Virus record (IMG/VR): IMGVR_UViG_2657245091_000008
DNA: 64,000 bases
Direction: 5' to 3' (one strand)
From: a virus
Lineage: Duplodnaviria; Heunggongvirae; Uroviricota; Caudoviricetes
Shown here: positions 2,954 to 56,132 of the stretch, one piece after another
How positions within the stretch are numbered: position 1 is the stretch's first letter
Layout of the letters: the number at the start of each line of letters is the position of its first letter
Program-made: the position numbers and the translations under genes
The notes under the pieces: generated by a model
The model's input: the letters and a program-made list of their open reading frames with translations, nothing else
Database searches by the model: none
Told to the model about the DNA's origin: nothing

Positions 2954-2997
2954 CCATTTGTGTTAGAAAATACATATTAATTATCTAACACAAATGG
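2954..2997. promoter_or_regulatory. palindromic pair of operator-like half sites (CCATTTGTGTTAGA ... TCTAACACAAATGG)
   Basis: 14-bp perfect inverted repeat with 16-bp AT-rich spacer immediately upstream of the rdgC-like start; contains the recurrent TGTTAGAAA core. Confidence 0.5.
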
Positions 2998-3006
2998 GTG
3001 CATTTT

Positions 3007-3660
3007 CTATCCTTTCTTGAAATCGAAGTTGCTAGCAGTGGCCTGAAAGGTTCCTCCTGCCTTGAAAGCTATGTCTCCGTTAGCGGTGACAGCAATATTT
3101 TCCCCTTTAACATTGATGTTGTTGGCTGATTTGACGTTAACACTCCCTCCTGCATTCACGATTACATCAGCCGGACCAATGATATATATCTGCCCGGACT
3201 CATTCATGCCAATCCTTGAGCCTGCTGCCGTATTGGCAATTTCATAGCCGCCACCAGCAGTTCGTACTTCAAGAATATTGTTGCGGTGAATAACGAAGTC
3301 TTTCGTTGCTGAGATTTGGGGGCGGGGAGGTGCTCCATCTACTTCCGGCGGCGTCCAGCCGTTGCCTTTGCCAGATGCTTCTGGTGCAACGTTTGGAATT
3401 CCTCCCGGTGCATCCTGAGCGGCACCAACTATCATTGGGCGTCTGGTGTCTATTCGACCGTTAACATCTAAATAAGGAAACTCTACCCAGACCAGGTCAC
3501 CTTTGACTGTGGGTACAAAAGCGTTCCCGATGGGTAACTGGTATTCCGCCCAGGGTAGATCGTCATCAGGAACGCCATTCCAGTCAGGTAAAACACGGAC
3601 TTGAGCACGCATAAGCCCTGCCGGGTGCACAGTTCCAACAATTTGCGCTCTACGCTTCAT
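3007..3660 (-). CDS. hypothetical protein, Gly-rich C-terminal repeats (last gene of a 4-gene operon)
   Basis: 217-aa ORF; start overlaps the stop of the upstream gene; C-terminal G/N/V-rich repeat (NVKSANNINVKGENIAVTANGDIAFKAGG). Confidence 0.5.
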   Translation of the reverse strand: MKRRAQIVGTVHPAGLMRAQVRVLPDWNGVPDDDLPWAEYQLPIGNAFVPTVKGDLVWVEFPYLDVNGRIDTRRPMIVGAAQDAPGGIPNVAPEASGKGNGWTPPEVDGAPPRPQISATKDFVIHRNNILEVRTAGGGYEIANTAAGSRIGMNESGQIYIIGPADVIVNAGGSVNVKSANNINVKGENIAVTANGDIAFKAGGTFQATASNFDFKKG

Positions 3661-4637
3661 TTGTTCGGCACTCCCAATATCATTCGTGTTGTGTAGCCTA
3701 CGCGGTCCTCAAAGTGCGCAACATTTTTTACTATCAGCTTACGGGGCATTGATTCATCAATGCGGTTTTCCTGGTCATAGCGGTATACGATAATCTCTAT
3801 TACCATCCCCGGTTTTATATCAGGATTGCCTGCGACTTCTATATCCATTTTGGGGACGAGAGACAGCTGCATATTGCGAAGAGTTTCCATATCAGAGTCG
3901 GATATATAACGCACTGGGAGTGAGCTATCGCCATATTCGACGTAGCCATCGGTCATGGAATACCCAACAAAACGATATTGATTCTTTGCTGTTGTCGCAT
4001 GTTCCTGTTGGAGTAGGCGCATTTTGGACAAAGTGTATTCTGCTTTAGGGTTATTCCCCTCGTAGGTAAATGATGGCGTTTGCTTCATCAGATCAGCCAG
4101 GGTGTAAAAGTTAAATTCCCCCCGGCATACCCAACATAATGCACCTTTGTCTCGCGCTATCTCCGAAAGCATTTTTGACGGTTTGTCACCGGCATTCAGA
4201 TGATATGTAACTGCGCGTTTTAGCACGCTGCTGGTAATTTTAAGCTTGCCGGAATATGCCTTGAATATAGCGTCTGGTGTTTTGTTGGTATGTAAATTTG
4301 TGCGCGGGGAGGGGATCTTAAACCTGCGCACGTCTTCACTGACAGCAATAACGGTAACAACATCACCAGCCAGCATTGCAGACGTAACAAAGAAATCTGT
4401 TTTAAAAGTGCCTGCATTACCGTTTGGATCGCCCATTTCAGCCACCAGCGATGCACCGTATTTGGCTTTCCAGTCATCAATTACGGTGCCGGTAGCGTCA
4501 TGAATTTCCAGTTTTAGCAAAGGGGCTTTGAGGCTGGTTTTTTCTACATATACTGCGGTAAAAATCCAGTCTCGTGGCACTTTGTTATCGTTAATGAGCA
4601 CTGACTGTAGAAAATATTGTTGTAACTCCTGGGCCAC
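3657..4637 (-). CDS. hypothetical protein (operon gene 3 of 4)
   Basis: 326-aa ORF, translationally coupled to its neighbours. Confidence 0.55.
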   Translation of the reverse strand: MAQELQQYFLQSVLINDNKVPRDWIFTAVYVEKTSLKAPLLKLEIHDATGTVIDDWKAKYGASLVAEMGDPNGNAGTFKTDFFVTSAMLAGDVVTVIAVSEDVRRFKIPSPRTNLHTNKTPDAIFKAYSGKLKITSSVLKRAVTYHLNAGDKPSKMLSEIARDKGALCWVCRGEFNFYTLADLMKQTPSFTYEGNNPKAEYTLSKMRLLQQEHATTAKNQYRFVGYSMTDGYVEYGDSSLPVRYISDSDMETLRNMQLSLVPKMDIEVAGNPDIKPGMVIEIIVYRYDQENRIDESMPRKLIVKNVAHFEDRVGYTTRMILGVPNK

Positions 4638-4640
4638 TTA

Positions 4641-5408
4641 TCACCCCATAGATATCGAGGTTTCGGTAATAATACGTTTTGCGTCCAACTCCCATGCTGT
4701 GATCACGTCTGCAATCACACTTATCGGCGCTTGTGTGGCATAAATACGCTCTTCTCCAATTGGTGCTGAAACATCCGTAAAGCCGACTTCTTTGGCATCC
4801 TGTATCGAGCAAATCAACGGGACCGGGACACGAACAAGGTGAGTGGTGGCTTCAAATTGTGTACCTGTCATCAGGCGAAGCCGTGCGCCCAGTGAATTAC
4901 ACATCAGACTCATGGTCGCTTTATCAGTTGCCATTAACGTAACGTCATACGTCAGAATGGCCTGGGTGTATTCCAGTTCTGCTAAAGGCATTCCGGTATC
5001 CGGTTCGCAAAAACTGGCTACTTTTTTGCGGTCAATCTGCTGATCATCGTTGATATAATTGATATCCATAGTGCGTGAGATATTGACCAGGGGGAGAGCA
5101 TCCCGGTTAATGTTCTGGTTTTCAGGTTTTCTCCCTTGCCCGGCATTTGCGCGACGAACTGCTTTAAGAAACTCGATCGCATTGTCGAAACGGGCCACAT
5201 AGACACGCTCTGCTGGTGGACGATTCAGGAATGACGCAAAGCGTTTTTCTTCCGGCGCGGGGGCCACCAGTAAGATATCAGAAAAAATGTTGCTGATTAG
5301 CGTCGCAAACGCGTTATCCACGCTTTCAAAGCCCGTGGTCTGGAATTTTCCTGTGCGTGAGGTTTGCCATTCACCTGTTCGCGCCAGGAGGGTTTTATTT
5401 GAAGTCAT
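4641..5408 (-). CDS. hypothetical protein (operon gene 2 of 4)
   Basis: 255-aa ORF; 4-bp overlap with the upstream gene. Confidence 0.55.
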   Translation of the reverse strand: MTSNKTLLARTGEWQTSRTGKFQTTGFESVDNAFATLISNIFSDILLVAPAPEEKRFASFLNRPPAERVYVARFDNAIEFLKAVRRANAGQGRKPENQNINRDALPLVNISRTMDINYINDDQQIDRKKVASFCEPDTGMPLAELEYTQAILTYDVTLMATDKATMSLMCNSLGARLRLMTGTQFEATTHLVRVPVPLICSIQDAKEVGFTDVSAPIGEERIYATQAPISVIADVITAWELDAKRIITETSISMG

Positions 5409-10154: not shown

Positions 10155-10808
10155 TCAAAGTATCACGGTATCTTCATCAACTTCTTTCCCAGCCAGTGAC
10201 TTTGGCTGGGAGGTGCCTGCTTTAACTTTTTCATGCCCAATAATGGAAAGGAACGAAGCGAGTATGCCTGTTTTTTGCTCTTTCTCGACTGTACCGGTCA
10301 TCTGCTCTACGTAATCCGCACTGGCAACGTTGTGGTATACGGTCGCGTAGCAACACAGTATCATCAGAATATGCTCCGGCCTGATATCCTGCCAGTTCAC
10401 CCTGTAGACTTCTTCTCCGTTACCGTTGTATTCGGTATCAACGATAGAGTCGGGGATTTCGAAAGCACCTTTGTTATTTTGCGGCAGGGATAATAGCTTC
10501 TGGAGTTTTAACTCTCTGTATCTTTCCATCCCGACGATGATTGCTGCTCTGCCATCGGCATGACGGGTCTTGAGAGTCACCTGGCTTGCTCCGGTGCCAG
10601 CGGAGATCGTTGGCGTAATTTCGTCTACCAGTACCTTAAATTTGCTTTTCCGCAGGGCTGCTATAGCTGGAGGAATTTTTTGCTTTTGCTCCAATGCTGA
10701 CGCGGGAAGGGGTTTTACTTCGTTAATAATGAGAGCGCCGTCTTTCAGTATTGCAGTGAGCATTTGAGGCTTGCTGGTGGTCAGGCTGAATATTGCGATC
10801 TTTTCCAT
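10155..10808 (-). CDS. hypothetical protein
   Basis: Start set at ATG 10806-10808 preceded by GGAGGAAGG; a GC hairpin plus T run lies just upstream on the minus strand. Confidence 0.5.
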   Translation of the reverse strand: MEKIAIFSLTTSKPQMLTAILKDGALIINEVKPLPASALEQKQKIPPAIAALRKSKFKVLVDEITPTISAGTGASQVTLKTRHADGRAAIIVGMERYRELKLQKLLSLPQNNKGAFEIPDSIVDTEYNGNGEEVYRVNWQDIRPEHILMILCCYATVYHNVASADYVEQMTGTVEKEQKTGILASFLSIIGHEKVKAGTSQPKSLAGKEVDEDTVIL

Positions 10809-11153
10809 TGTCCTTCCTCCACGGATGACGGATACAAAAAAAGGCCGCACATGGCGGCCTGCTTTGGCGTTATGACTCCCTACCGCGCTTCGGCTGAAAG
10901 TTAATCGTCAAAAGAACCTTCAACGGGAGCCGTTAGCGCGATGGATTATGTGCAGTTTGTGATTTCAAAAATAGTGTCAACCACTTTTTTTGGATTTTAT
11001 TTTTTGACAGAAATTTGGCCTAAATCATGTTGATTTGGCTGATTATTTTTATAACATAAAAGTCATTTTGATTGCATGAAGGACGGTGCAGTGAAGTTAA
11101 GGGTTTTAGGGACCGCGCTCGCGGCTAAGATGGTAAAGTATGGAGTTAATGAA

Positions 11154-11996
11154 ATGTTTTTTATAAAAAATGGAAAAAGATGTTCCTCAACAATACTTGC
11201 TACTGTTGTTGCTCTCTCTGTTCCCACATTTGCCTTTGCTTATGATTTTAGCAAAATTGACTGCAATGCCCCTAAAACCAGACAGATGTTAATCGATGAT
11301 TATAATGAACTGCTGAAGGACGATCAGGAAGCAATCTCTGTAATTGATGCTTATAATCAGATCAATGAGATAAGAGAAAAAAATAAGCTCCAATGCCTGG
11401 GAACGTATGAATTCTCAGATGGAAGTGCGCTTAGGGTTAGATATAAGTTATATTTAAATAGCCTCGGCACACCCATATATGAATTTGCTCCAGTTGAGGA
11501 ATTAACGCAAGATGACGTAAGTGCATCTATTCATAATTCCCCTGCAACTCCTGCAACTACAGCGAGCATGGCTGGACATGATAAAAAAAATAATGGTGAA
11601 ACGTATGCCTGTAAGGTGGCTGTAACTTACAAGGGGGAGCGTTCTAACTATATGGGGGATTCCGGAACATGGGATCGTGTGATTACTGACTATGGCACTT
11701 ATTTTTCATGGGATTTGCCACGCGGGAACCGAGGTAACAGCACAGGTCAGGATGCTTTTAGTGGCATGGACGAATCAAAGCCTGTATTAGAAAATCAGCT
11801 AGTGAGAAAGGAAATTGAAAAAGATGGTAGCGTGGTTGATGAGTTTAGGACAGAAGTGAGTTATGGAGACAAACAACCGGTACATAAGTTTGTATATGCC
11901 CGTAGAATAAAACCTACAGGAACGAGAGAATATTATGTCACTGATTTGACGGACAAGCGGGCATTTATGTTTCTGAATTGCCAGCGAGATTCGTAA
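11154..11996 (+). CDS. hypothetical secreted protein
   Basis: Signal-peptide-like N-terminus MFFIKNGKRCSSTILATVVALSVPTFAFA; start chosen at the ATG with GGAG 9 nt upstream. Confidence 0.5.
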   Translation: MFFIKNGKRCSSTILATVVALSVPTFAFAYDFSKIDCNAPKTRQMLIDDYNELLKDDQEAISVIDAYNQINEIREKNKLQCLGTYEFSDGSALRVRYKLYLNSLGTPIYEFAPVEELTQDDVSASIHNSPATPATTASMAGHDKKNNGETYACKVAVTYKGERSNYMGDSGTWDRVITDYGTYFSWDLPRGNRGNSTGQDAFSGMDESKPVLENQLVRKEIEKDGSVVDEFRTEVSYGDKQPVHKFVYARRIKPTGTREYYVTDLTDKRAFMFLNCQRDS

Positions 11997-12002
11997 TTGA
12001 TA

Positions 12003-12032
12003 AAGCAGGCTTAACGACTAAGCCTGCTTTTT
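12003..12032 (+). terminator. rho-independent terminator
   Basis: Hairpin aagcaggctt-aacgact-aagcctgctt followed by TTTTT, between convergent genes. Confidence 0.65.
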
Positions 12033-12037
12033 GGATT

Positions 12038-12388
12038 TTACTCGGTAATAGTTTTGCAGTTGTTTTGGTTTAAGGCCAATCCAAGTTTGCTGGCGGCTAA
12101 CTCATTTTCTGTGTGAGAACCAGCAAATACAAATCCTTGTTTTATCTTATTTACGGTGAAATATTTATTGTATATAAATGCCCAGACAAGTGAAGCTACC
12201 CAAGGACCAATTCCTGCAGTGAGAAATGCCAAGATTAGCATCACAACGAACACCCCGATGAAAGTTATAAAGTCTTTCCTGAACAAAGCCGGGAAGGCAC
12301 CAAAAAAGAACGTAGTCCAGGAGAATCCATAAAAGCCTGAGATGGACTCGCCTGTCCGAGGGTTTTCTAAGTTAATTTTAGTAGCCAA
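12038..12388 (-). CDS. small integral membrane protein
   Basis: 116-aa ORF with two long hydrophobic helices. Confidence 0.5.
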   Translation of the reverse strand: MATKINLENPRTGESISGFYGFSWTTFFFGAFPALFRKDFITFIGVFVVMLILAFLTAGIGPWVASLVWAFIYNKYFTVNKIKQGFVFAGSHTENELAASKLGLALNQNNCKTITE

Positions 12389-12556
12389 AGTTATTCATCC
12401 TTTAACGTAAAAAAACAAATAATTATAAAGCTGTGTGAGTGCGCTATTTTACTAATCTACACTATGTTATGCAATTTATTGGTATCAGGCCCCGGCTAGG
12501 CCGGGGCAAAAGCTATTAACTAACGATCCAGTCCATAGCAATAACATCCTCTGGAG

Positions 12557-13456
12557 CTAAATCAATAGCATGGATTTTCCCGTCCCGGATGGTGCGCCAG
12601 TGCTTTCGTGATCCACCTTCGGGCCATACCATACACCTTCAGGCCAGGAAGAACGACGACACACTGTTGCGTATCCAGTCCTGATCTTCTCTCTGGCGGT
12701 ATGTAGTGACAGATTATCCTTTGGGCTTTCAGGCACAGGATGGTGGATTGCCTGAAACATCCCCATCTTTGGATGATACCAGCGTTTATTGCGTGGTTCT
12801 GCCTCCGACATCACCTGCTTAAAGGCTTTCCGGAAGGGGGCCAGGGCCACAATGGAGCGTCGCGCAAGCAAACCATCTGGAGTTAAAAACTCATGCGTAT
12901 CGGTGGGAATCCGGTAAGCGTTGACCAGGTTTCGGCATTTGGCTTCAGTCAGGCCGCATTTCGCCGCCAGCTGGCGGTAGCCAATGTAGCCTTCCGGCAT
13001 ATTGCCTTTCTTTATTTGCTCGACGGTTTCAGCGACTTTGGACACTTGTGCCGATACTTCGGCTACCTGGGCATTAACAGCGTTGATCCGGCGTTCATGC
13101 TCAAGATGCATTTGCGCCATTTCAGCCAGGATTTCGGCTTTTGATTTTAACGGTTCCCTGGCATTCTCCAGTTCGCGCCAGCGGTCCACCAGCCGGGCGG
13201 TGAATTCCGGAGAGAGCTGTGCGACGACAATGATACTATCGCGCTTGCCTTGTTCGCCTTCGAAGACGTAAGCCTCGACACTACGGCGTAGTCCTAAGTT
13301 GTTGATTTTTTCGAAAACCTCAATTTGAGGAAACCGGACAACGCCACCTTTGGCTAATGTCTCAATAGTGCGTTTCACATTATCATGACGCTTACCCACC
13401 AGTTCCGCGATCTCAATACTGGTCATTGTCGCTTTGCGAGAGATGGGCAGATTCAT
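12557..13456 (-). CDS. antirepressor-like protein (Rha/Ant family), copy 1, with C-terminal extension
   Basis: Clear paralogue of the protein at 53637-54344 over about 230 aa; here the stop is absent and the frame continues about 70 aa through sequence homologous to the small ORF 53440-53640. Confidence 0.65.
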   Translation of the reverse strand: MNLPISRKATMTSIEIAELVGKRHDNVKRTIETLAKGGVVRFPQIEVFEKINNLGLRRSVEAYVFEGEQGKRDSIIVVAQLSPEFTARLVDRWRELENAREPLKSKAEILAEMAQMHLEHERRINAVNAQVAEVSAQVSKVAETVEQIKKGNMPEGYIGYRQLAAKCGLTEAKCRNLVNAYRIPTDTHEFLTPDGLLARRSIVALAPFRKAFKQVMSEAEPRNKRWYHPKMGMFQAIHHPVPESPKDNLSLHTAREKIRTGYATVCRRSSWPEGVWYGPKVDHESTGAPSGTGKSMLLI

Positions 13457-13671
13457 CAGTGCACCTCCACGCAGTTCATCGGCAGATTCCAGTAATTGAG
13501 GATCTCCATCGCATCAAGAGTGAAGCGAGCAGCAAAAATGCAGGGTTCTTCGGGAAGGTATGAGCGCGCTTCTGCTTCGGTTGTAGCCATGACGCAGATA
13601 TACAGGTGTTTTTGGCAGGAATAGAAACGCCAGATAAATTCAGAATGAGTTGGGGTAGGGATAGTAGCCAT
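13456..13671 (-). CDS. Icd-like small protein, copy 1
   Basis: 71-aa ORF overlapping the ant start; paralogue of 54344-54568 (shared EFIWRF, TEAEARS); position matches P1 icd upstream of ant. Confidence 0.5.
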   Translation of the reverse strand: MATIPTPTHSEFIWRFYSCQKHLYICVMATTEAEARSYLPEEPCIFAARFTLDAMEILNYWNLPMNCVEVH

Positions 13672-13980
13672 ATTGGCAGCCTCCTTTTGCTAAGTTAAGG
13701 AGCTACCGCGTGAGGTTCCAATCTCAATGGCGGTAGCACTGACTGGGTTGGAACTACCGGCGCAAAAGGGAACCGGCCTGCCTTTCGGCAGCCCAGCCAG
13801 CACTACCATTGATCTCTGAGCTAAACGCTACGTATGGCTGTGCGATGGCATGACACAAAAAAAGACGCTTTCGGCGTCTGTGTCGCCTTTTGCATTATCC
13901 GGGGTTCCAATCCCGGCACCCGTTTTTCTAAGGTGCCGTAGAAATATACCCCACGATAATGCCAGGGCGCAACAGTCAGT
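13672..13980 (-). ncRNA. structured untranslated leader, candidate c4-like antisense RNA region (copy 1)
   Basis: No credible ORF; GGTTCCAATC occurs twice (13706-13715, 13903-13912) with a partial complement at 13736-13745; hairpin plus T run on the minus strand around 13856-13880. Confidence 0.3.
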
Positions 13981-14482
13981 ATTTTATGCTTTGGCGGATT
14001 TCTTCCGGGCTTGCTTGCAGGCGTAGGCCATTGCTTTAGCTTTCACTTCATCCAGCTTCCCGGTAATCACTTCTTTTCCGAGAGTGACAAACCAGTCATA
14101 GCAACCGCCAGTAATGTTCTTGATTTGAAAGTTGAGGTAGCGAACAGTCATTTTGACACCCCCAGCGCGAATAAAGAATGCAGATTATCGCGTGAGTGGT
14201 GGACGACGAGTGATGGGAAAAGACTGTAGTTGTTCATAGTGTAGTGACTCCTTGCTTTCGGAGCCGCCATCGACTGTTCCACGGTCTGGTGGCGGCGCAA
14301 TAAAGGCTGGAACACCGTGAGTCAACGGGGGCTTTTCAGCCACCTATATTGCACCGCCATAGGTATGGCGGCGGCAATAATACGAAAAACTAAATAGTTT
14401 GTCTCAAAAAGTTGACCGGTGTGCCAATCGGTAGTGAATGTACATCGGAGAAATTTTCAATTCAACTTAAAATGTTAGAAAA

Positions 14483-15061
14483 CTAATTTATCAATTCAAT
14501 TGCCATCTGATACAACGCCATTTCATCGGCATTGTGCCGTATGAAATCTGCTTTTCCGCCTATTTTTCCATCAGCATGAACAGGGACCAGCCAGGGATAT
14601 TGTTCTCGGACCTCGGCTGGCGCTGCGTACTGGTGGTGCCATTTACACAAAGGGAGGACATATTTATGCGCGTTCTCTGCCGTTCTCCCGAAGATATGGT
14701 GCAGGGATACCACTGGGCTATGTTGCCCGTGAATATGGCAGGCAATGCAGGGGAGAGTACCGATAGCGGTCTGTATCCGGCGTTCATCGGCTGTGAGTGA
14801 TCTGCCCTTCAGGCCGCGTGACGTGCGTGTTTTTTTGGGCGGAGCGGATACAGCTTTATCTTTTCTCCGCTGTTCATATTGCTTTGCTTTTTCAATTTTC
14901 TTTTGCCGATATTCAGGCGATGCGGCTTTTTCTCTCGCTCGCTGCTGCTGGCGTTGAGCTTGTTGAAGGCGCTTTGCCCTTTGTTCCTCTCGCCAGGCCG
15001 GGTCAGCCAATTTTTGCATGGCCTTTTGTCTCTGTTTCTCCCAATAACTCTGTTTCTGCAT
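14483..15061 (-). CDS. ref: Ref-like recombination enhancement HNH nuclease
   Basis: 192-aa ORF; highly basic Gln/Arg/Lys-rich N-terminal half and Cys/His-rich C-terminal core (PCIACHIHGQH...LPLCKWHH). Confidence 0.55.
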   Translation of the reverse strand: MQKQSYWEKQRQKAMQKLADPAWREEQRAKRLQQAQRQQQRAREKAASPEYRQKKIEKAKQYEQRRKDKAVSAPPKKTRTSRGLKGRSLTADERRIQTAIGTLPCIACHIHGQHSPVVSLHHIFGRTAENAHKYVLPLCKWHHQYAAPAEVREQYPWLVPVHADGKIGGKADFIRHNADEMALYQMAIELIN

Positions 15062-15107: not shown

Positions 15108-15140
15108 ATGGTTAGATATTCAAAATTGATTTTCTAACAC
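15108..15140. promoter_or_regulatory. operator-like inverted pair upstream of ref
   Basis: GGTTAGATATTC ... GATTTTCTAACAC about 50 bp upstream of the ref start. Confidence 0.5.
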
Positions 15141-19580: not shown

Positions 19581-19607
19581 TCAAATCATTTACGCACTCA
19601 AAATTAC

Positions 19608-19636
19608 GTTAGAACATTGATTTTAGTTTTCTAACA
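19608..19636. promoter_or_regulatory. operator-like inverted pair
   Basis: GTTAGAACATTG ... TTTTCTAACAT about 45 bp upstream of the 19679 start. Confidence 0.5.
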
Positions 19637-19678
19637 TATTATTTTACCGCTCGGAACAAAACAGAGTCGGTATGCATT

Positions 19679-23412: not shown

Positions 23413-23413
23413 T

Positions 23414-32726: not shown

Positions 32727-32734
32727 AATTTAAT

Positions 32735-33763: not shown

Positions 33764-33915
33764 GAAACTATTTGACCTCTATATACAGATGACGCTACGC
33801 GAAAAATATAAAAATGACAGGGTAGCTATAAGTTAATTTTCAAAATACAAGCCTTTGATTCGAGGCACGTATTTTCAGTGATGTCAACACTGTTCATCTA
33901 CACATGATTATAGCC

Positions 33916-33947
33916 TAACTTTAAATAATGCCAATTATTTAAAGTTA
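33916..33947. other. rox-like recombination target site (14-bp inverted repeats, 4-bp spacer)
   Basis: TAACTTTAAATAAT-GCCA-ATTATTTAAAGTTA, a perfect inverted repeat; arms begin TAACTT like loxP arms; matches the published rox site as I recall it. Confidence 0.75.
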
Positions 33948-34044
33948 CAGAATGGCGATTTTTTTTAATCCATCATAGATTGATTTTGACCAGTAACACG
34001 TTGCCTTCATGGTCTTTAATTTGCGAAGTGTGGTTTATACAGTT

Positions 34045-34145
34045 GGTTTTCTAAAATTGATGACAAAAAATCACAGTTCGATCCTTTACTCACTCTGTTA
34101 TTCGACATAAATTTGTCATAGTAATTTTATGTTAGAAAACTAAAT
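34045..34145. promoter_or_regulatory. two operator-like sites in the promoter of the candidate repressor gene
   Basis: GGTTTTCTAAAATTGA (34045-34060) and ATGTTAGAAAACTAAAT (34129-34145), the second only 12 bp before the start codon. Confidence 0.5.
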
Positions 34146-38560: not shown

Positions 38561-38577
38561 TGTATTAGAAAATTAAT
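38561..38577. promoter_or_regulatory. operator-like site upstream of lpa
   Basis: TGTATTAGAAAATTAAT about 80 bp upstream of the lpa start. Confidence 0.45.
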
Positions 38578-38592
38578 ATTAAACACCTAATG

Positions 38593-38985
38593 CTACCAGC
38601 GAGACAAACGAACAACATGTTTCACTTTTGCGATCCACTTTCCGCGATAACTATTGATTACGGCCTGTGCCAGCTTCAAATTGGCTTCAAAATCAGCCTT
38701 ACTACCATCAGACTCCACCAGCATTCCTCCATCTATTTCTGGTAAACATAGATAATCCTGCTCAACCTGCAGCGGCATTGATGGCTCTCTGAATGGCGTT
38801 ACTTGCTCTGCTTTCCAGCGAAATCTAACCCTCATCCCCCTGGTGGTCATTACTAGATAGCCTGTTATAGTGCTTTTATGGCCCACATCAGTACGCGTGG
38901 CATTGCATGACACGATCTTACAGTTAGCGATAGACCACTCCATATTGGTGGCCTGTTGAGTGCTTAATTTGGTAGTCCCGTACAT
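38593..38985 (-). CDS. hypothetical protein
   Basis: 130-aa ORF. Confidence 0.45.
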   Translation of the reverse strand: MYGTTKLSTQQATNMEWSIANCKIVSCNATRTDVGHKSTITGYLVMTTRGMRVRFRWKAEQVTPFREPSMPLQVEQDYLCLPEIDGGMLVESDGSKADFEANLKLAQAVINSYRGKWIAKVKHVVRLSRW

Positions 38986-39560
38986 CAGAAAGCCTCCCAG
39001 TCAGTCGCGATAATATCCACACCAGTTGCAAACCAGTCTGTCTGCGCCTGTAAATCCCCATTCATCATTACCAGGCGAGGCATCACCATCACATCGCACC
39101 CTTCCACAATATCGAATGCCTCTTCCGGCAAGAATTCGAAGAGCTTTTCTTTGCTGCCAATGCTGCCACGGAACATCGATATATAGCTCCCTTTAGGCCA
39201 TGATGTCCGCCGGGCATCAAGCCCTTTCATCATCCAGTAAAAAGCCGAGGAAAAAGGGATATTCTTTTTGCCAATGATTACATTATTCGCTTCTGTGTAC
39301 TTCAGGAACTTAACTAACCTTACCATTGACTCGGATAACGCAACGTATGGCTCATGATTGATTGCTGACACGCTTACACCGTGCAATCCAACGCTTACCA
39401 CTGTCATATCGCCGCTCTGTGCGGTTTCGATATTGACGCCTTTGCGAACTAATGAGGCGTAAAGTTCCTCTCGCTTTTGGGTCCAGCGTTCCCGCTTCCC
39501 TATGAAGTCACTCAAAATGAGATCTTCTTCTGCATATGCGTTATCGTTCGCCATTAACAT
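38985..39560 (-). CDS. hypothetical protein with DUF2829-like segment
   Basis: 191 aa; FSSAFYWMMKGLDARRTSWPKGSYI resembles the DUF2829 core. Confidence 0.4.
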   Translation of the reverse strand: MLMANDNAYAEEDLILSDFIGKRERWTQKREELYASLVRKGVNIETAQSGDMTVVSVGLHGVSVSAINHEPYVALSESMVRLVKFLKYTEANNVIIGKKNIPFSSAFYWMMKGLDARRTSWPKGSYISMFRGSIGSKEKLFEFLPEEAFDIVEGCDVMVMPRLVMMNGDLQAQTDWFATGVDIIATDWEAF

Positions 39561-40014
39561 AACGTCTCCTTTTTTACGCGCGCGACTATCCCCCGGAAGT
39601 ACCGGTAGTGATGTCGTAACTTCGTATTAATTAAGGGGTACAGCCTGAGCGGCTATATGATGAATTGAAAGGAGTTGTGGCGGTGGTGCCTCCACCTGCC
39701 AGGTTAGCCACTCCTGGCGACGTCACTTATCAGAACGTAGTGAATGAAAATGGCTTCGTCACGAGCGCATAGCCGCAATTACCACAACGGAAACGGCGCT
39801 CGCATTAATTAAACGCCTTTTCCTGTTGTGCGCCGTACTCTTCCGGCTGTCACACCGAATCGCCAGGATGGTGAGTCCCTGAGTCCGCTATCCCTCCAGC
39901 GGTGACTTGCACATTCCGGCTACCTGATGTGCCCATGCAGTGTTAGTAAGGTACCTAACAGCTACACCAGACCGCTAACGACGCATGTGCCATACGTCGT
40001 GTTACAACCAAATA

Positions 40015-40090
40015 TGGTGGCCCCTACCGGATTTGAACCGGTGACCGTGCGATTATGAGTCGCCTGCTCTAACCACTGAGCTAAAGGGCC
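40015..40090 (-). tRNA. tRNA-Ile (anticodon CAU, ileX-like) or tRNA-Met
   Basis: Minus-strand GGCCCTTTAGCTCAGTGGTTAGAGCAGGCGACTCATAATCGC...GGTTCAAATCC...GGGGCCACCA; cloverleaf with CAU anticodon and encoded CCA; very close to E. coli ileX as I recall it. Confidence 0.8.
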
Positions 40091-40227
40091 AGATTACTGT
40101 TAATTCCGCTTACGCTTTTTGCCAGAACCGCGTAAGGCTTTTGCCGCTTGCTCGACCCCATATGCAACCACCAGCAAAAATAAAAATGTCCAACCAGGGT
40201 TCTTATCGGCAAACGCCCAAAAATTCA

Positions 40228-40551
40228 TCACTTACAGCCACCTTGCATTTCCTCGGATAATTCATTGATTTTAGTGCTCAATAAGTAATCAAAGTAAAGA
40301 TAAAACACAAAAGTAACGATAGTGCTTAAAGTGTCTGAAATTGCGTATTTCAGCTCAGGAAGCATGACAAAGCAGACAAATAGCGGAAGAAATAACTGCA
40401 CTATGCACAGGCTCTCCTTCCACAACCATCTATATCTGAAGTCTGACAACAAAAACTCCATTGCTTGAAACTTTATTAGATTGCGGTGCCTGGTGCCTCC
40501 AGGTGACGTTAACCAGTTAACAATTAACGCCGGGATGTTTGACTTAACCAC
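40228..40551 (-). CDS. possible small membrane protein between tRNA genes
   Basis: 107-aa AT-rich ORF with hydrophobic stretches; no clear ribosome-binding site. Confidence 0.25.
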   Translation of the reverse strand: MVKSNIPALIVNWLTSPGGTRHRNLIKFQAMEFLLSDFRYRWLWKESLCIVQLFLPLFVCFVMLPELKYAISDTLSTIVTFVFYLYFDYLLSTKINELSEEMQGGCK

Positions 40552-40711
40552 TAAGGAGGATTGTTTTAACTGTTCCGCGTGCGCTTAGCCGCATTCACCG
40601 CAATGGTAAGAGCACTTGGCTGGCTGGGCGGCGATGACGCCTGTACGCATTTGGTGATCCGGTTCTGCTTCCGGCATTCGCTTAATTAGCCAAATACTCT
40701 TAACGTTGCGC

Positions 40712-40798
40712 TGGCGGAGAGTAATGGAATCGAACCATCATCGCTTGCGCAATGGGACGGTTTTCAAGACCGCTTGAGCACCATGCTCCCTACTCTCC
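40712..40798 (-). tRNA. class II tRNA, anticodon UGA (tRNA-Ser-like)
   Basis: 87 nt; acceptor GGAGAGT/ACTCTCC, anticodon loop CUUGAAA, variable arm with GCAA tetraloop, T loop TTCGATT, discriminator G, encoded CCA. Confidence 0.65.
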
Positions 40799-41170
40799 CG
40801 TTATTGTGGCGACCGGTGCTGATCTCCGGCTTGCGGTTATTTCAGACTCTCACGGGCGTTTAATTGCCCCGCCGAACAGCTCTTTTCCGCAATAGCTGCA
40901 ATGTCTTTCGCGCATCAGCCTGCGCATTCACCACAATGTTGAGAACACTGGTTGTCACGCTGCAACGCAACATTTATTCGTAGATTGGGATATGACCCCG
41001 TTACGCCAGTGTTCTCAACGTTGTAGTGCCGGTTACGGTTCCGGCCAGGCCTCTTCCTCAACGGGGTGTTCTCCATACGGACTACCGTTTATTGGTCGTT
41101 CCTGCGGTTTATGTTGTGAAGCCAGATGCTTATCTTCTGGTTGCTTCAAAGAGCTGCACTTCCTCACAAC

Positions 41171-41244
41171 GGTAAGGGTACTTCGTAGGGATTCGAACCC
41201 TCTGCCAAGCTCGGCGATCTCCGACGTCGCAAAATACCCTTACC
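41171..41244 (-). other. tRNA-like fragment / degenerate tRNA
   Basis: Contains a T-arm-like GGGTTCGAATCCC and a 10-bp terminal inverted repeat (GGTAAGGGTA...TACCCTTACC) but no foldable anticodon or D arm. Confidence 0.3.
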
Positions 41245-41252
41245 TGTTGTGC

Positions 41253-41328
41253 TGGTGCCGATTAACGGACTCGAACCGCTGACCATTCGCTTACAAAGCG
41301 ACTGCTCTACCAACTGAGCTAAATCGGC
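41253..41328 (-). tRNA. tRNA-Thr (anticodon UGU)
   Basis: GCCGATTTAGCTCAGTTGGTAGAGCAGTCGCTTTGTAAGCGAATGGTCAGCGGTTCGAGTCCGTTAATCGGCACCA on the minus strand. Confidence 0.85.
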
Positions 41329-41332
41329 AATT

Positions 41333-41419
41333 TGGTGGGGAGTGATGGAGTCGAACCACCCGAGTCGCAATGACAGTAGATTTACAGTCTACCCCGCTAC
41401 CCCTACGGACTAACTCCCC
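41333..41419 (-). tRNA. tRNA-Tyr (anticodon GUA)
   Basis: 87-nt class II tRNA; anticodon arm GTAGACTGTAAATCTAC, T loop GGTTCGACTCC, discriminator A, CCA. Confidence 0.8.
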
Positions 41420-41424
41420 TAAAG

Positions 41425-41501
41425 TGGCGATGGTGGGTGGATTCGAACCACCGACCGACAGCTTAGAAGGCTGCTGCTCTATCCTACTGAGCTACACCAT
41501 C
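41425..41501 (-). tRNA. tRNA-Arg (anticodon UCU, rare AGA/AGG decoder)
   Basis: GATGGTGTAGCTCAGTAGGATAGAGCAGCAGCCTTCTAAGCTGTCGGTCGGTGGTTCGAATCCACCCACCATCGCCA. Confidence 0.8.
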
Positions 41502-42735
41502 ACTTGCCGGGTACGTCTCCGGCGAGGGCTTCCACCTCCGTATGCTTTTCGGCGCACCGCGCCCTGGCTGCAATTCGGTAACAGGGGATGCATAACCCTG
41601 GCTTCCAGCGTGATTAGCGCCTTCAGCATGACGGGATATACCCGTTACAAGAAATTCCCCCAGGATGCCATTAAGCAATGGCTGTTACGCGGGAGGGACG
41701 TAACAGGTAAGGGCGCTGACCAGAAAGACCTGACCCTTCTCATTCATCTGGTTAATCACACCAGCGCCCTTGCCTGTTATGCCTCCCCGTTCCCTAATAC
41801 ACAGACGGGGACACTCTGCGGTCGATTTTTTGACGGGGGACGACTCATACCCCGTGGCGTCTGGCTTCTTAGGCCGCTACCATCATCAGATCATCGTTTG
41901 CATTTACTTTAATGGTCGGTTTCTAAACCGCCGCAAAGTCGCTAACCATGACGAAAACCCTAAAAAAGCCCACCCGAAGATGGGCAAATACGCTACATCT
42001 CACACAAGAAAGAAGCCGACTGCCTGAGCTGGATTCACTTTCAAATGCCCGCAGAAAGGGATCACAAGTCGGCTTCTTTCTTGATGCGGCACTCTCTCCG
42101 CCCGTCACCGCTCTGTCTCGGTTGTCGCGTTTGCCACGCCAGCCGTAACGAGGTTTAAAGTCTTTGCACGTTTCCATCACTCGACTGCCGTCTGTGGCTG
42201 TTCGTTGCAGCGGGGGTGCCTCCCCCTGGGGATATCCCCGGCCTTACCCCATTCTTTCAAGACACAATGCAAGGCCACATCCGCATAGGTGCATTACCGC
42301 AACATTAAGGAGACTCAGGGCAAAAGGTAACCGCCACAAAAATCCCTATGCCTCCTTAATGTTGAAGATGTGCATTGATGATTAGATGCAGCATGTACTG
42401 TTACTCTCTGCCGGACCATCATCAATGAACACCTTAAAAAGACCTTCCGTGGCTCAACATGTATTGTCGTTTACTCCGCAAAGTGCTCTCTCTGAAACCA
42501 CTTTCCGCACTAAACCTGTTGAACTTTGGTCAGCTCGGTGCCAAAGCGTGCTTTTGCTTTACTATACTTTTCTAACACTTTAATTTGTTAACAGCCGGTG
42601 GGCAAACAATAACCAATAAGTGACTATCAAGCCCAGCAAGCGAAACGTGGGTGCCGCCCACCAGCAAGGAAAATTCTATGTTAAGTTATCATCACAATCA
42701 ATACATTCGAATTGTGATTTTAGATTTCTAACACA

Positions 42736-43959
42736 TTACTTCCCGTAAAGATCTTCTACGCCCCCATTCTTCTTATCCCATTCGTTCGCCCATACCCGGC
42801 AAGCGTCAATGATTTCCTGACGACGATCTCCTTGCATGAACGGGATGCTTTCATGGAAACAGCTTGGAATGCAGGCCACACTGAATACGGTATCAAACTC
42901 CGTCTGCTTGATTGCCTCCAGCGTCTCTGGACGCATTTTTAATTCATCGATTGGCGCATCCTTAGAGTCCATAATCCGGCGATATAAGCGCGGAAAATCC
43001 GTCTCCAGGTACGCCATAATTTTATCTGCGAGACATTCGTCTATGTCGGTATTCCAGTCCTTTTCGAAGCCCGGCAGGCGATAGTAAAGCGGCGTTCCCC
43101 ATACCGATGGGATCACATCCATCGTTAACAGGCGATTGGTTCTGATTTGTTGATGGTAATTAGCCGTCAGCAGTGCTTCGCCACGCTGCCCAGTTTCCGC
43201 AACCAGGCCGTGCGGATACTCATGGATGTAGGCAATGGCATCCCTTCCATCATACATAAGTGGAAATGTCTCTGGTCTTTGTCCCATGCCACAAGCACGG
43301 TTCAGATCGTGACCAAGCTGTGAGCACTCTCGCTTTAATGTTTCGATAATGCTCTGCGCTGTAGCCAACTTTTTACGCAGTGTGACGCCTTCGCCTTGAT
43401 AATCAATGCATTGCTGATTGAGCTTGGTTAAACGCTCTTTTAGTTCCCGGCGCTCTCTTTTCAGCGTGCGGTTATCCTTCTCCGCAACATCCAGCCGCTT
43501 TGTCAGGCTGGGCGGATAGTCTTTTTTGTAACGGTTCAAATCGGCTTCGGCAGATTTACGCAGTGTATTTGCCTGTTCAAGACGCGCTTCCAGATTGCCG
43601 ATCTCATTACGCATATTCGCGGCAAATTGATTAACTGCATCACCCAGGCTTTCAACTGTCGCTGATACGCCTGTGACTTGTGAAAAACGGATCAAGCCAT
43701 CATTAACGGCTTGTTGGTATTCCTCAAACTGATCCACCAGCTTATTGTAATCAACTGCCCCATCATCAAGCAGCTTGTTGATTTCCGCCACCAGGTTATC
43801 TGTAGTGGCAATGACACTCTCGTGCAGTCGCTTTGACAGGTCATCACCCGGATTCCGTTTCTGTATAAGAGCGATTTGTGTGCGCAGCGTTTCAATTGCT
43901 GTCGAGATAATTTCCAGATTAGAAGTATCAGTGTGTTGACTCATTGCTGTTCCCGTCAC
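42736..43959 (-). CDS. hypothetical coiled-coil protein
   Basis: 407-aa ORF; operator-like sites both upstream (43962-43988) and at its 3' end (42719-42738). Confidence 0.5.
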   Translation of the reverse strand: MTGTAMSQHTDTSNLEIISTAIETLRTQIALIQKRNPGDDLSKRLHESVIATTDNLVAEINKLLDDGAVDYNKLVDQFEEYQQAVNDGLIRFSQVTGVSATVESLGDAVNQFAANMRNEIGNLEARLEQANTLRKSAEADLNRYKKDYPPSLTKRLDVAEKDNRTLKRERRELKERLTKLNQQCIDYQGEGVTLRKKLATAQSIIETLKRECSQLGHDLNRACGMGQRPETFPLMYDGRDAIAYIHEYPHGLVAETGQRGEALLTANYHQQIRTNRLLTMDVIPSVWGTPLYYRLPGFEKDWNTDIDECLADKIMAYLETDFPRLYRRIMDSKDAPIDELKMRPETLEAIKQTEFDTVFSVACIPSCFHESIPFMQGDRRQEIIDACRVWANEWDKKNGGVEDLYGK

Positions 43960-44057
43960 CTTGTTAAATTAGTTTTCTAACATATTTTATTAGTTTGATG
44001 GCGGTATCGGAAGATGCAATAAACAAAAAACCCGCTAATTGGCGGGTTTTTATGCAA

Positions 44058-44568: not shown

Positions 44569-45063
44569 TTAATCAAGACAAACATACTCCGTGATAGCTT
44601 TTATGGCTTCAGCGGCACTGCGCGCCTCAAAGCAGTAGTAACCGGCTTCAGTGAGGCGAGTCATCCAGACGAGTTGTTCGGGAGTCAGGCGATTTCTCCC
44701 ATGTTTCATCTCAATGCGCATTCCGTGGTATCCCCCACAAGCAAGGTCTATAGAAAGATCGGGATATCCCTTCTTTTGGCCCTCTGCCACCATTTTTATT
44801 GCCGTCCTTATGCCTCGCAGGCCACCGTTTGGAGTGGCGTGAGTATGCTCATACACATAACGCATATTGCGATACAACCAGTCCAGGACGCGAACCTGCT
44901 CGTAATGCTCATGGTTCCTTTTGATTAGATCTGGGTTTTTCTCCAGTTCTCTAAGAGCTGCGGCATGTGGGGATGTTTCAGAATATTCACTGCGACGCCT
45001 TCTCTTTCGCGCTATTTTTCTAACACACCCATTGATAGTAAATGTGCGAAATAATAACAACAA
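44569..45063 (-). CDS. VRR-NUC domain nuclease (start uncertain)
   Basis: ...HATPNGGLRG...GQKKGYPDLSIDL...MRIEMKHGRNRLTPEQLVW matches the VRR-NUC pattern; the ORF begins at TTG and runs through an operator-like site, so the true start is probably further downstream. Confidence 0.55.
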   Translation of the reverse strand: MLLLFRTFTINGCVRKIARKRRRRSEYSETSPHAAALRELEKNPDLIKRNHEHYEQVRVLDWLYRNMRYVYEHTHATPNGGLRGIRTAIKMVAEGQKKGYPDLSIDLACGGYHGMRIEMKHGRNRLTPEQLVWMTRLTEAGYYCFEARSAAEAIKAITEYVCLD

Positions 45064-45199
45064 CGTTAGATTTGTAAAACAAGAGAGATACTACTCAAGG
45101 ATGGTCTATATGCAACAGGTCGGATTTGCTTTTAGAGTAAAGAGTGACCTTAATCAACAAGGAGGGTAAATCGCATGGCATTTACCCAACCTGTTATTT

Positions 45200-53431: not shown

Positions 53432-53439
53432 ATCACGCT

Positions 53440-53640
53440 TCAAGTCACGATCCAATCATTACCGACTATATCAGCCGTCGATAAATCAACTTCCCGGATC
53501 TGGAGTCCATTAATACAAAACCATCCGGTAGTAGAGTAATTATCAGGCCAGGCCCATACACCAACACTCCATGCTTTACGGCGGCACACTTCAGCCTGTC
53601 CTTCCCTGATTTTTTTTACCGCCTGCATGATGTCCATCAC
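53440..53640 (-). CDS. hypothetical small protein downstream of ant copy 2
   Basis: 66-aa ORF; its homologue in copy 1 is fused in frame to the ant gene. Confidence 0.35.
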   Translation of the reverse strand: MMDIMQAVKKIREGQAEVCRRKAWSVGVWAWPDNYSTTGWFCINGLQIREVDLSTADIVGNDWIVT

Positions 53641-54344
53641 TCACCTCCCCAACCGATCACCTGGAATTGCCCCATTTTGGGGTGATACCAGCGTTTTCCT
53701 CGGTGTTCAGCCTCCGACATCATCCGGTTAAAAGCATTCATGAAGGGATATAAGGCCACGATGGAACGACGCGACAATACCCCCTCTGGAGTTAAAAACT
53801 CATGCGTATCGGTGGGAATCCGGTAAGCGTTGACAAGGTTGCGGCATTTGGCTTCAGTCAGGCCACATTTCGCCGCCAGCTGGCGGTAGCCAATGTAGCC
53901 TTCCGGAATATTGCCTTTCTTTATTTGCTCGACGGTTTCAGCGACCTGGCTAACCTTTGACTCAACAGCATGAATCCGCTTTTGCTGCTGAACTGCATTC
54001 GCAGCCATTGCAGCGATCATCTCTATTTCGGTCAACGGCTGGCGTACTTGTTCTTCCAGTTCGCGCCAGCGGTCCACCAGCCGGGCGGTGAATTCGGGAG
54101 AGAGCTGCGCGACGACAATGATGCTGTCTCGTTTGCCTTGCTCGCCTTCGAAGACGTAAGCCTCAACGCCACGACGCAATCCTAAGTTATTGATTTTTTC
54201 GAAAACAGCCATTGGCGGTTTTCGGATAATGCTTCGAGCAACCATACGCTCAATACTACGTTTAACGTCAGAGTGTTGGCTTCCCACCAGCTCCGCAATC
54301 TCAATGCTGGTCATTGATAGTTTTTCGAGAATGCAGATACCCAT
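53637..54344 (-). CDS. antirepressor-like protein (Rha/Ant family), copy 2
   Basis: 235 aa; paralogue of 12557-13456; coupled to the upstream Icd-like ORF. Confidence 0.65.
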   Translation of the reverse strand: MGICILEKLSMTSIEIAELVGSQHSDVKRSIERMVARSIIRKPPMAVFEKINNLGLRRGVEAYVFEGEQGKRDSIIVVAQLSPEFTARLVDRWRELEEQVRQPLTEIEMIAAMAANAVQQQKRIHAVESKVSQVAETVEQIKKGNIPEGYIGYRQLAAKCGLTEAKCRNLVNAYRIPTDTHEFLTPEGVLSRRSIVALYPFMNAFNRMMSEAEHRGKRWYHPKMGQFQVIGWGGE

Positions 54345-54568: not shown

Positions 54569-54890
54569 AGTTACGGCCTCACTAACAGGTTTAACAACCT
54601 GCCACCCGCTGTCAAACAGGTGGCAGGACGTGACAGGGTTGACAGACTGGCGTTAGTGAAACCAGCAGGCCGAAGCCTCCCCATCACGCCCCACCATAAT
54701 TCGGGCGTAACGCGGTTTACGGACACAAAAATACCGCAATATCGGAAATCTGCGGTTGTCCGCACTAACATTCAGGCTGTCAAACCCGGTCGCAGAATTT
54801 GCTACGACGGCATGAATATAAGCCTGAAAACATGGAAGATCAACTAAAAATTTCAGCAATGGATGACTTCAGTCGATGATGCAGATCATA
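54569..54890 (-). ncRNA. structured untranslated leader, candidate c4-like antisense RNA region (copy 2)
   Basis: CTGTCAAAC occurs twice (54609-54617, 54777-54785) with its complement GTTGACAG at 54638-54645; 9-bp stem hairpin CCTGCCACC...GGTGGCAGG. Confidence 0.3.
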
Positions 54891-54894
54891 CATT

Positions 54895-54931
54895 CCGTTT
54901 TAGAAACAGCAAATTAATTTTCTAACATAAA
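54895..54931. promoter_or_regulatory. operator-like inverted pair upstream of immI-like module 2
   Basis: GTTTTAGAAACAGC ... ATTTTCTAACATAAAT. Confidence 0.5.
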
Positions 54932-54981
54932 TCATCGGCCGAGCATTTTCCGATCATTGGGATGTTTTGTAGACACACAGG

Positions 54982-55944
54982 TCATCCCCTAAATCCCGCA
55001 GGGATTGACCAATCCTCACGGTCAAATTCAGACCGATAGCCACGCTGTTTCATCAGGTCAAAGGCTTCACCAATGGTTGCACACCCCTGGGAGCCAGAAT
55101 AATCCATTGAGAAATCTAGGGCACTGGATTGTTTAGGCTTATTCACTGCGGTAGCGGCACTACGTATCCATGCAAATTTTTTTGCCAGCTTTTCAGCGGT
55201 ACGATACAGAGCCTGCCGTTTTGCGTGCCCCTCGTCTGAACGACGCTTTGCAGCTCTCGCTTTTGCCGCCGCCAGGCAGTGGTTGGTATGTTCTTCCCTG
55301 ATTACTGGTTTTTTATCCAGTACCACGTTATCCGTTTGAGAACTATCTGCTGGTGAAGCCTTTGGCTGAACCGCGCATGATCTTTCTCTTCTTTTGGCTA
55401 TAGAGTGACTCTTATTTTCTATTGGCTGTTCATTTTGAACATGGGGGGACTTGTTCAATTTGAACAGGGGGTTCCCAGTTTCAAAAAAATAACGAACCTT
55501 TGAAATCAACTGCTTAACCAGTTTTGTGGCGTTGGCAAATTTGATGCCCTGCTTACCCCCTATCTCCATTGCTACATGAATGAAGTGGAGAAATTGTGTC
55601 GTAAACCGATATACGTTACACACCTGGGCATTGTTATTCGCTACCTGATGTTGCTTAACAAGCATTCCGCACTTCGTCGCTTCAGCAAATGCCCGGCGCA
55701 CAGTAGAAATACTGCGTCCTGTAATCTCGGACATATCAGCATATGAGCGACGGATCATGTATTCATCGGTAGACCCTGCCAGGTTAGCGAACTCGGCAAT
55801 AATGGCGCTATGTGAAGGGGAAAGAAGACCGCTATGACGAGCAAAAAAACTCAACTGATGACCTTTGATTTTTTTGTGGTATTCAGTGTTGTTTTTATAC
55901 TCAGAAGTGTTGAAAGTTACTGAAACTGAATTTAAAATACTCAC
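54982..55944 (-). CDS. putative replication / DNA-binding protein with HTH (RepL-like?)
   Basis: 320 aa; HTH-like segment YADMSEITGRSISTVRRAFAEATKCGMLV and a basic C-terminal half; operator-like site in its promoter. Confidence 0.35.
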   Translation of the reverse strand: MSILNSVSVTFNTSEYKNNTEYHKKIKGHQLSFFARHSGLLSPSHSAIIAEFANLAGSTDEYMIRRSYADMSEITGRSISTVRRAFAEATKCGMLVKQHQVANNNAQVCNVYRFTTQFLHFIHVAMEIGGKQGIKFANATKLVKQLISKVRYFFETGNPLFKLNKSPHVQNEQPIENKSHSIAKRRERSCAVQPKASPADSSQTDNVVLDKKPVIREEHTNHCLAAAKARAAKRRSDEGHAKRQALYRTAEKLAKKFAWIRSAATAVNKPKQSSALDFSMDYSGSQGCATIGEAFDLMKQRGYRSEFDREDWSIPAGFRG

Positions 55945-56112
55945 CAGATAGTTCCGTGAAAAAATCTATCTACCGTATAAATCTATGGCAGTGGATTTAT
56001 ACACCCAAAAAGCCGCTTCTCAGCGGCTTTTGCTTTTTTGGCAGTCGCTACCGGAGCAGTGACCGCGATCCTACTCGATCCCATCCACCAGGATCAACAG
56101 TGTATATAAATA

Positions 56113-56132
56113 CACTATGTTAGAAATTTAAC
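56113..56132. promoter_or_regulatory. operator-like site
   Basis: ATGTTAGAAATTTAAC upstream of the 55944 start. Confidence 0.45.

Follow-up and report, generated by a model that had tools for sequence, protein, structure and literature searches.

The 64,000-nucleotide stretch of Caudoviricetes DNA held as IMG/VR record IMGVR_UViG_2657245091_000008 (the whole stretch is hereafter called the window) is, as judged by its ~99% identity to Escherichia phage D6 (MF356679, AY753669), a phage D6-like plasmid prophage. We describe here a dispersed, asymmetric 16-bp motif of this element, RTGTTAGAAAAYTAAT, which is predicted to be, and very probably is, the operator of the prophage's master repressor, D6-type C1, a divergent homologue of the C1 repressor of phage P1. 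Such a system is to be expected in a phage already known and sequenced, and it represents a heteroimmune form of the P1 C1 regulon. More than 100 plasmids of E. coli and Salmonella are likewise ~99% identical to the window, and this number of near-identical entries in PLSDB indicates that D6-like phage-plasmids are common in both hosts. The operator set would define a D6-like immunity group together with its complete repressor-controlled regulon, and would predict which P1-like elements can coexist or superinfect.

For the analysis, the D6 genes were mapped onto the window, with D6 position 1 corresponding to window position 33933. The gene order dre - rox - c1 - pacB - pacA - lpa is found in the window and in D6, and it is the same in P1.

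Enrichment of the motif in non-coding DNA

The window contains 12 copies of the motif core, TGTTAGAAA, where 0.62 are expected, and none of 100 shuffled sequences had as many; the 16-mer RTGTTAGAAAAYTAAT with up to three mismatches is found 17 times against 2.2 expected. An unsupervised k-mer enrichment also placed the motif family at the head of both the 9-mer and the 10-mer lists. We built a position weight matrix (PWM; 22 nt, ~19 bits, consensus TATTGTGTTAGAAAATTAATTT) from RTGTTAGAAAAYTAAT and took a score of at least 15 as the threshold for a site. As a result, 18 sites at 15 loci were detected in the window, where Markov-chain simulations expect 0.33, and 16 of them fall within the 10.4% of the window that is non-coding (binomial p=2.3e-14). 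The whole D6 genome holds 19 sites, 18 of them in the part that corresponds to the window, and the late block at 30-54 kb holds none. These counts bear out the dispersed, asymmetric, promoter-proximal motif that a preliminary description of this DNA had reported.

Fifteen of the 16 intervals listed in that description contain a PWM-supported site, although one of them, 32707-32726, is offset by ~10 nt from the true 16-mer at 32719-32734 (+). The remaining interval, 39941-39960, had been taken for a compact palindromic operator; we rejected it, as its PWM score is below 7 and its match is limited to 6-bp arms. The sequence at this position, TGTTAGTAAGGTACCTAACA, is a hairpin with 6-bp arms just 3' of the tRNA-Met gene and contains TGTTAG, as in the operator, without the A-tract.

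Three clear inverted pairs of abutting 16-mers, each 32 bp long, were found at 2960-2991, 15109-15140 and 19606-19637. Three further sites have a degenerate partner (54897, 42703 and 38578) at exactly the same 16-nt offset, and all three partners score above the 99th percentile of PWM scores in non-coding DNA. This regularity bears on the idea that the motif is a non-regulatory dispersed repeat, such as the remnant of a duplicated promoter cassette or a small mobile repeat. In keeping with that idea, the sites at 43968 and 56117 share the additional downstream sequence TTAACAAGG(T/C)GA, which lies at 43952-43967 beyond the first operator (pmgS side) and at 56133-56146 beyond the second (repL side) and is found at no other site. 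However, at all other sites the likeness does not go beyond the 16-22 nt core, the core forms a conserved island in diverged intergenic DNA, and the spacing of the inverted pairs is fixed at 16 nt, so that a dispersed repeat is very improbable.

Operators are annotated in neither of the D6 records MF356679 and AY753669, and no account of D6 operators or motif string was found in the accessible literature, a search that left two primary D6 papers outside its reach.

The repressor gene c1

The gene proposed to act on these sites adjoins pacB, as follows.

34158-35195 (+): c1, encoding the 345-aa (amino acid) D6-type C1 prophage repressor, 100% identical to D6 c1

Both D6 records name this open reading frame (ORF) c1, "similar to P1 C1", and it stands as the best candidate for the repressor, as the preliminary description had also proposed. 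The same description had taken its product for a likely non-C1 repressor, in other words for a protein that runs the regulon in analogy to P1 C1 without being homologous to it. Pairwise searches leave room for this view, since D6 C1 and P1 C1 share 21% identity over 240 aa by BLASTP (E 2e-8), tblastn with the 345-aa ORF at E<1e-3 matched D6 itself alone, and a local Pfam scan of the ORF gave no match. However, PF27008 (Phage_P7_repressor_C1) is precomputed on every D6-type homologue (99-44% identity) and on every P1 C1 homologue, and hhalign of the D6-type family against the P1 C1 family gave a probability of 97.3% with an E of 2e-11 over 229 columns. The alignment spans D6 residues 7-241 and P1 residues 8-246, which is nearly the whole P1 protein, and both genes occupy the same slot between pacB and the dre or cre recombinase gene. 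Moreover, no second C1 homologue was found in the D6 genome, nor was a separate P1-C1-like repressor with P1-type operators, a possibility that the preliminary description had raised. A non-C1 repressor is thus unsupported and hardly to be believed. Judged by these profile matches, the 345-aa protein is a divergent C1 with changed specificity, the same kind of repressor as P1 C1, and the element is a member of the P1/P7 C1 repressor family (PF27008) that stands outside the P1 immunity group.

The D6 protein differs from P1 C1 (283 aa) at its C-terminus, where residues 245-345 form a tail of ~100 aa that P1 C1 does not have; this tail is predicted to be helical in the AlphaFold2 (AF2) model (predicted local distance difference test, pLDDT, 79) and is also present in the C1 proteins of Leclercia and Citrobacter (~345 aa). 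As a further difference from P1, no homologue of the accessory factors Lxc and Coi was found. Neither lxc nor coi is in the D6 annotation, and the ORF in the lxc slot (orf13) shows no similarity to Lxc and was therefore rejected as its analogue; Lxc has also been reported as not detected (PMC6799933). We speculate that the tail may be an oligomerisation module and a source of cooperativity, standing in for the missing Lxc.

Predicted operators and their promoters

The predicted operators of the window are as follows, with their PWM scores.

2960-2975 (+) and 2976-2991 (-): bivalent operator of rdgC(hrdC)-dcm-dmt; 23.3 and 26.5
11042-11057 (-): monovalent operator between the divergent genes mat and simB; 19.7
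14472-14487 (+): monovalent operator overlapping the ref 3' end and preceding immunity module 2; 28.3
15125-15140 (-, strong) and 15109-15124 (weak): bivalent operator of ref and the divergent early operon orf88...ppp; 28.5 and 9.2
19606-19621 (+) and 19622-19637 (-): bivalent operator 42 nt upstream of pdcB (DUF968); 20.7 and 28.4
32719-32734 (+): monovalent operator between the dre stop and the start of orf117-orf116-dut; 27.1
34042-34057 (-): distal, weaker c1 operator in the dre-c1 intergenic region, partly kept in relatives; 17.2
34129-34144 (+): proximal operator of c1, 14 nt before its start codon; 27.2
38562-38577 (+, strong) and 38578-38593 (degenerate, inverted): lpa operator; 25.2 and 2.8
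42563-42578 (-): operator downstream of a leftward promoter facing the tRNA cluster; 20.1
42719-42734 (-, strong) and 42703-42718 (degenerate): operator of the tRNA cluster; 26.9 and 3.6
43968-43983 (-): operator 9 nt upstream of pmgS; 30.2
45065-45080 and 45011-45026 (both -): two operators of pmgM (VRR-NUC); 18.4 and 15.5
54913-54928 (-, strong) and 54897-54912 (degenerate): operator upstream of immunity module 1; 30.6 and 5.0
56117-56132 (+): operator 173 nt upstream of repL (lytic replication); 24.1

At c1, the proximal operator lies just downstream of the start point of a conserved promoter-like sequence, TTTACT-17-TAAATT, which suggests that c1 is autoregulated. The pair at 2960-2991 consists of two tail-to-tail 16-mers that form a 32-bp quasi-palindrome upstream of the rdgC operon, and a strict scan placed the rdgC -10 element GATAAT (2985-2980) inside it. 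The site at 11042-11057, which the preliminary description had overlooked, contains a candidate -10 element, TAACAT, and the pair at 15109-15140 contains the -35-like hexamers TTGAAT and TTGATT, one for each direction. The lpa operator is located 19 nt upstream of a conserved lpa promoter, and the lpa protein itself matches PF25716 (5e-57). The promoter TTGATT-17-TAGAAT (42701-42673) abuts the operator at 42703-42734 and points to the tRNA cluster, and a -10-like hexamer, TAAAAT, directly precedes the operator at 43968-43983. The pmgM promoter TTTACA-16-TATTAT (45078-45051, 10/12 matches), which also came from the strict scan, has its -35 element inside the site at 45065-45080 and the second site just downstream; a VRR_NUC domain was found in the pmgM product. 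Overall, at 11 of 14 targets, a relaxed scan detected a sigma-70-like promoter that shares sequence with the operator or lies directly next to it.

Two separate immI modules, both on the minus strand (13726-13936 and 54616-54821), are each preceded by a C1-type operator and contain an Rfam C4 antisense RNA. Module 2 consists of an isrK-like RNA (13858-13936), the C4 RNA (13726-13813), icd2 and ant2, and module 1 of the a1b1 targets (c4-a1b1, 54769-54821), the C4 RNA (54616-54701), icd and ant.

Correspondence with the P1 C1 regulon

We compared these loci with the experimentally derived C1 operators annotated in the P1 record AF234172 (L009). P1 has 22 C1 operators, with the asymmetric 17-bp consensus ATTGCTCTAATAAATTT (PMC8546580). 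They map to the window as follows.

Oref (ref): 15109-15140 (ref / orf88)
Omat (mat): 14472, also over the ref 3' end, and 11042 (mat/simB)
Oc4 (c4-icd-ant): 14472 and 54913, both upstream of an Rfam C4 RNA
OrepL (repL): 56117
Odmt (uhr-hrdC-dmt): 2960-2991 (rdgC-dcm-dmt)
Obanab (Oban; tRNA-tci-ban operon): 42563 and 42719, upstream of the tRNA cluster
O26 (pmgL-pmgM): 45011 and 45065 (pmgM)
OpmgRa/b (pmgR, pmgS): 43968 (pmgS)
Olpa (lpa): 38562
Oc1a-e (c1 region): 34042 and 34129

The operators of AF234172 thus map to the same genes, in agreement with the wiring proposed in the preliminary description. The two systems have in common a homologous repressor, whose gene is next to pacB and the cre/dre recombinase gene in both, dispersed asymmetric operators that partly form inverted bivalent pairs, and the operons c1, lpa, repL, ref, mat, hrdC-dmt, c4-icd-ant, pmgR/S, pmgL/M and the tRNA operon, with the late genes under indirect control via lpa. 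In addition to these, P1 has the operators Ossb, Orlf, Oppp and OpmgT, whereas the D6-type element has its own sites at 19606-19637 (pdcB) and 32719 (the operon after dre), and it carries two immI modules. The likeness extends to a detail at mat, where P1 Omat (2628-2645) also covers the 3' end of ref (ref end 2637). AF234172 lists this operator on the minus strand, but the operator-like sequence, CATGCACTAATAAATAT, is that of the plus strand, which looks like an annotation slip.

The operator sequences themselves are different, as the preliminary description had noted. With up to three mismatches allowed, ATTGCTCTAATAAATTT matches nowhere in the window or anywhere else in D6 but 17 times in P1, and P1 in turn has no exact copy of the D6 core; the similarity between the D6 and P1 operator matrices is not significant (p=0.16). 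The geometry of the pairs also differs, in that D6 pairs consist of two abutting 16-mers (32 bp) and P1 pairs of 17-mers that overlap by 6 bp (28 bp), and the orientation of the half-sites is reversed if the operators are aligned on TCTAA. As the operator sequences are unrelated, cross-recognition is not expected: the D6 and P1 repressors would ignore each other's operators, and this would explain heteroimmunity between the two.

Lambda-type CI/Cro systems, too, maintain the prophage by an autoregulated repressor and show heteroimmunity that stems from altered operator specificity. In contrast to these, the D6-type system is without a helix-turn-helix (HTH) domain, dimer-symmetric operators or clustered OL/OR; its asymmetric sites lie scattered across the genome, and c4-icd-ant antirepressor modules take the place of Cro.

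The P1 comparison also bears on whether the motif might be part of a late, Lpa-dependent promoter instead of a repressor operator, a reading that could draw on the sites before pmgS and pmgM, both annotated as putative morphogenetic genes. However, pmgR/S and pmgL/M of P1 are C1-controlled as well, and P1 late promoters consist of a AAGTGACTT-like box at -22 and a -10 hexamer, of which the window has one match, at none of the motif sites; the box itself bears no relation to the motif. Furthermore, the motif is located neither upstream of prt, darB, ddrB, gp26 and gp7 nor in the 30-54 kb late block of D6, while it does precede lpa and c1. A role as a late promoter element can be all but dismissed.

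Conserved positions and changed operators in relatives

We then compared the sites with those of related elements. In the relatives L006, L008 and L007, whose C1 proteins are 51%, 48% and 44% identical to that of D6, TGTTAGAAAA recurs at syntenic positions upstream of c1, lpa, DUF968 (the syntenic site of L007) and pmgS, and after dre. It is the sole invariant 10-mer in the alignment of the c1-upstream region from four relatives, and each of the four sequences compared has an inverted pair as its lpa operator.

In plasmids with C1 proteins of 24-30% identity, the D6 motif is absent and other motifs are present at the same syntenic positions. Thus, AATTCTAAGG was observed 5 times against 0.03 expected in Citrobacter, and AGATTCTAA 4 times against 0.09 expected in Leclercia (C1 ~30% identical in each case), with the sites near rdgC, ref, c1, lpa, pmgS, VRR-NUC and repL, and past the integrase. 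The counterpart of the site at 32719, after dre, is syntenic in L006, L007, Leclercia and Citrobacter, in each with the local motif type. In a Xenorhabdus megaplasmid with a C1 of 24.5% identity, the sites at c1, lpa and VRR-NUC read AARATTCTAA with a T-run behind it. This exchange of motifs at syntenic positions indicates that the operator sequence follows the C1 lineage while the wiring is retained. TCTAA is common to all four operator classes and is suggestive of a common core. The resulting orthogonal repressor/operator pairs of the P1, D6 and Leclercia/Citrobacter types could join Cre/Dre, which are already in use.

In one of these relatives, Leclercia pE1_003 (L011), the large-terminase gene adjoining c1 (region 10592-14978) is split by the transposon Tn5403, and this plasmid is thus probably a defective prophage.

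Assignment of the operators to C1

Several observations count against the assignment of the motif to C1, or at least against its details. The entire case has been built from sequence. Relaxed promoter matches are frequent in AT-rich DNA, several sites overlap no confidently predicted promoter, orf117 is without a predicted promoter, and the lpa, repL and 42719 sites are located ~18-20 nt upstream of the best -35 element. The absence of Lxc and Coi means that the circuit is no exact copy of the P1 circuit, and the co-variation with the motif does not single out C1, since every protein has diverged from one of these lineages to the next.

It is therefore conceivable that another factor, such as the Rha-type Ant, Lpa, or host IHF or Fis, binds the motif and that C1 acts elsewhere. 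Ant1 and Ant2 carry Phage_pRha and weak HTH matches, and every phage protein co-varies with the motif across the lineages. However, the sites mirror the experimentally annotated P1 C1 regulon nearly gene by gene, the most conserved site directly precedes c1, and the ant genes are themselves downstream of sites and C4 RNA. A host-factor site, moreover, would not change its sequence among phage lineages that share hosts. Binding by another factor is accordingly improbable, if somewhat less so than the other alternatives considered above.

With D6-type C1 as the repressor, we infer that C1 binds the motif, represses by binding, and binds as a monomer, as reported for P1 C1. In the lysogen, C1 would occupy the ~18 sites at 15 loci, over or next to the sigma-70 promoters of early, lytic and immunity operons, and in the simplest reading would act by promoter occlusion or as a roadblock. 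The controlled units would include repL, the late-gene activator gene lpa, ref, mat, rdgC-dcm-dmt, pdcB, pmgS, pmgM and the tRNA operon, as well as both c4-icd-ant antirepressor modules and c1 itself, which would be autoregulated via its two sites. Repression of lpa would silence all late genes indirectly, and such control fits the lack of sites in the late block.

A possible Tus-like fold of the C1 family

Tus (PF05472), the replication terminus-binding protein of E. coli, binds as a monomer to an asymmetric site, and P1 C1 reportedly does likewise. We compared a C1 superfamily profile with a diverse Tus profile and obtained a match of 78.9% probability (E 1.6e-5) over 116 columns, between C1 residues 87-206 and Tus residues 159-278; the D6-only and P1-only profiles gave weak matches to Tus in the same register. 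The TM-scores (structural similarity scores) of C1 against Tus were 0.26-0.29, the AF2 model of P1-type C1 (pLDDT 54) was too poor for use, a PDB search with the C1 profile hidden Markov model found nothing, and a fold search of BFVD gave no matches. The alignment of TerB with D6 or P1 operators was no better than with shuffled sequence (p 0.09-0.7), and no paper linking C1 to Tus was found in the accessible literature. Unlike Tus in the Tus-Ter system, C1 represses transcription and has many sites, and there is no sign that it arrests replication forks.

On balance, the chances appear about even that the C1 family of P1, P7, D6, Leclercia, Citrobacter and Xenorhabdus consists of Tus-fold monomeric clamps, with at least four operator classes built around TCTAA whose flanks set immunity. 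If this is true, the Tus fold would explain how a C1 without an HTH domain reads an asymmetric 16-17-bp site, and would thereby address the recognition of the asymmetric P1 C1 operator, a question open since the 1980s-90s. A phage immunity repressor would moreover be tied to a replication terminator protein, and there would be a rule by which the immunity groups of P1-like phage-plasmids could be predicted from sequence.

Other features of the window

The window is a mosaic relative to D6, in which dcm, rdgC, orf80, ant2 and ant1 are 84-90% identical within flanks of ~99% identity (mosaic stretches 1378-2947, 12038-13456 and 53637-54344), and the DNA at 16.3-31.3 kb is mostly replaced. Five tRNA genes (Met, Ser, Thr, Tyr and Arg) were detected by ARAGORN and Rfam at 40015-41501 on the minus strand, whereas the D6 record has three on the plus strand with partly different identities. 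D6 also carries tciA/tciB where the window holds other DNA, and 40015-41501 is a variable cargo region.

A near-consensus sigma-70 promoter, TTGGCA-16-TATAAT (33907-33934, minus strand, 11/12 matches), reads into dre and overlaps the rox site region. Exact copies of the box AAATCACAYA are found at 52866, 58883 and 60330, upstream of three late genes (the orf16 hydrolase gene, prt and ddrB, respectively), and in D6 this box may correspond to the -22 box of P1 late promoters; over the window as a whole it is not enriched (13 matches against 11 expected).

The product of D6 orf6 (191 aa; 38985-39560, minus strand), directly upstream of lpa, contains a Tad2-like domain (PF11195, E 1e-9). Tad2 is Thoeris anti-defense 2. 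Relatives also encode a Tad2-like domain at the orf6 position, in L007 as a fusion with dUTPase.

Finally, the Chi sequence GCTGGTGG is strongly over-represented, with 42 copies in the window against 5.4 expected; it is also over-represented in the relatives L006, L007 and L012, and the Citrobacter relative has 51 copies against 4.35 expected. P1 is likewise known for Chi over-representation.

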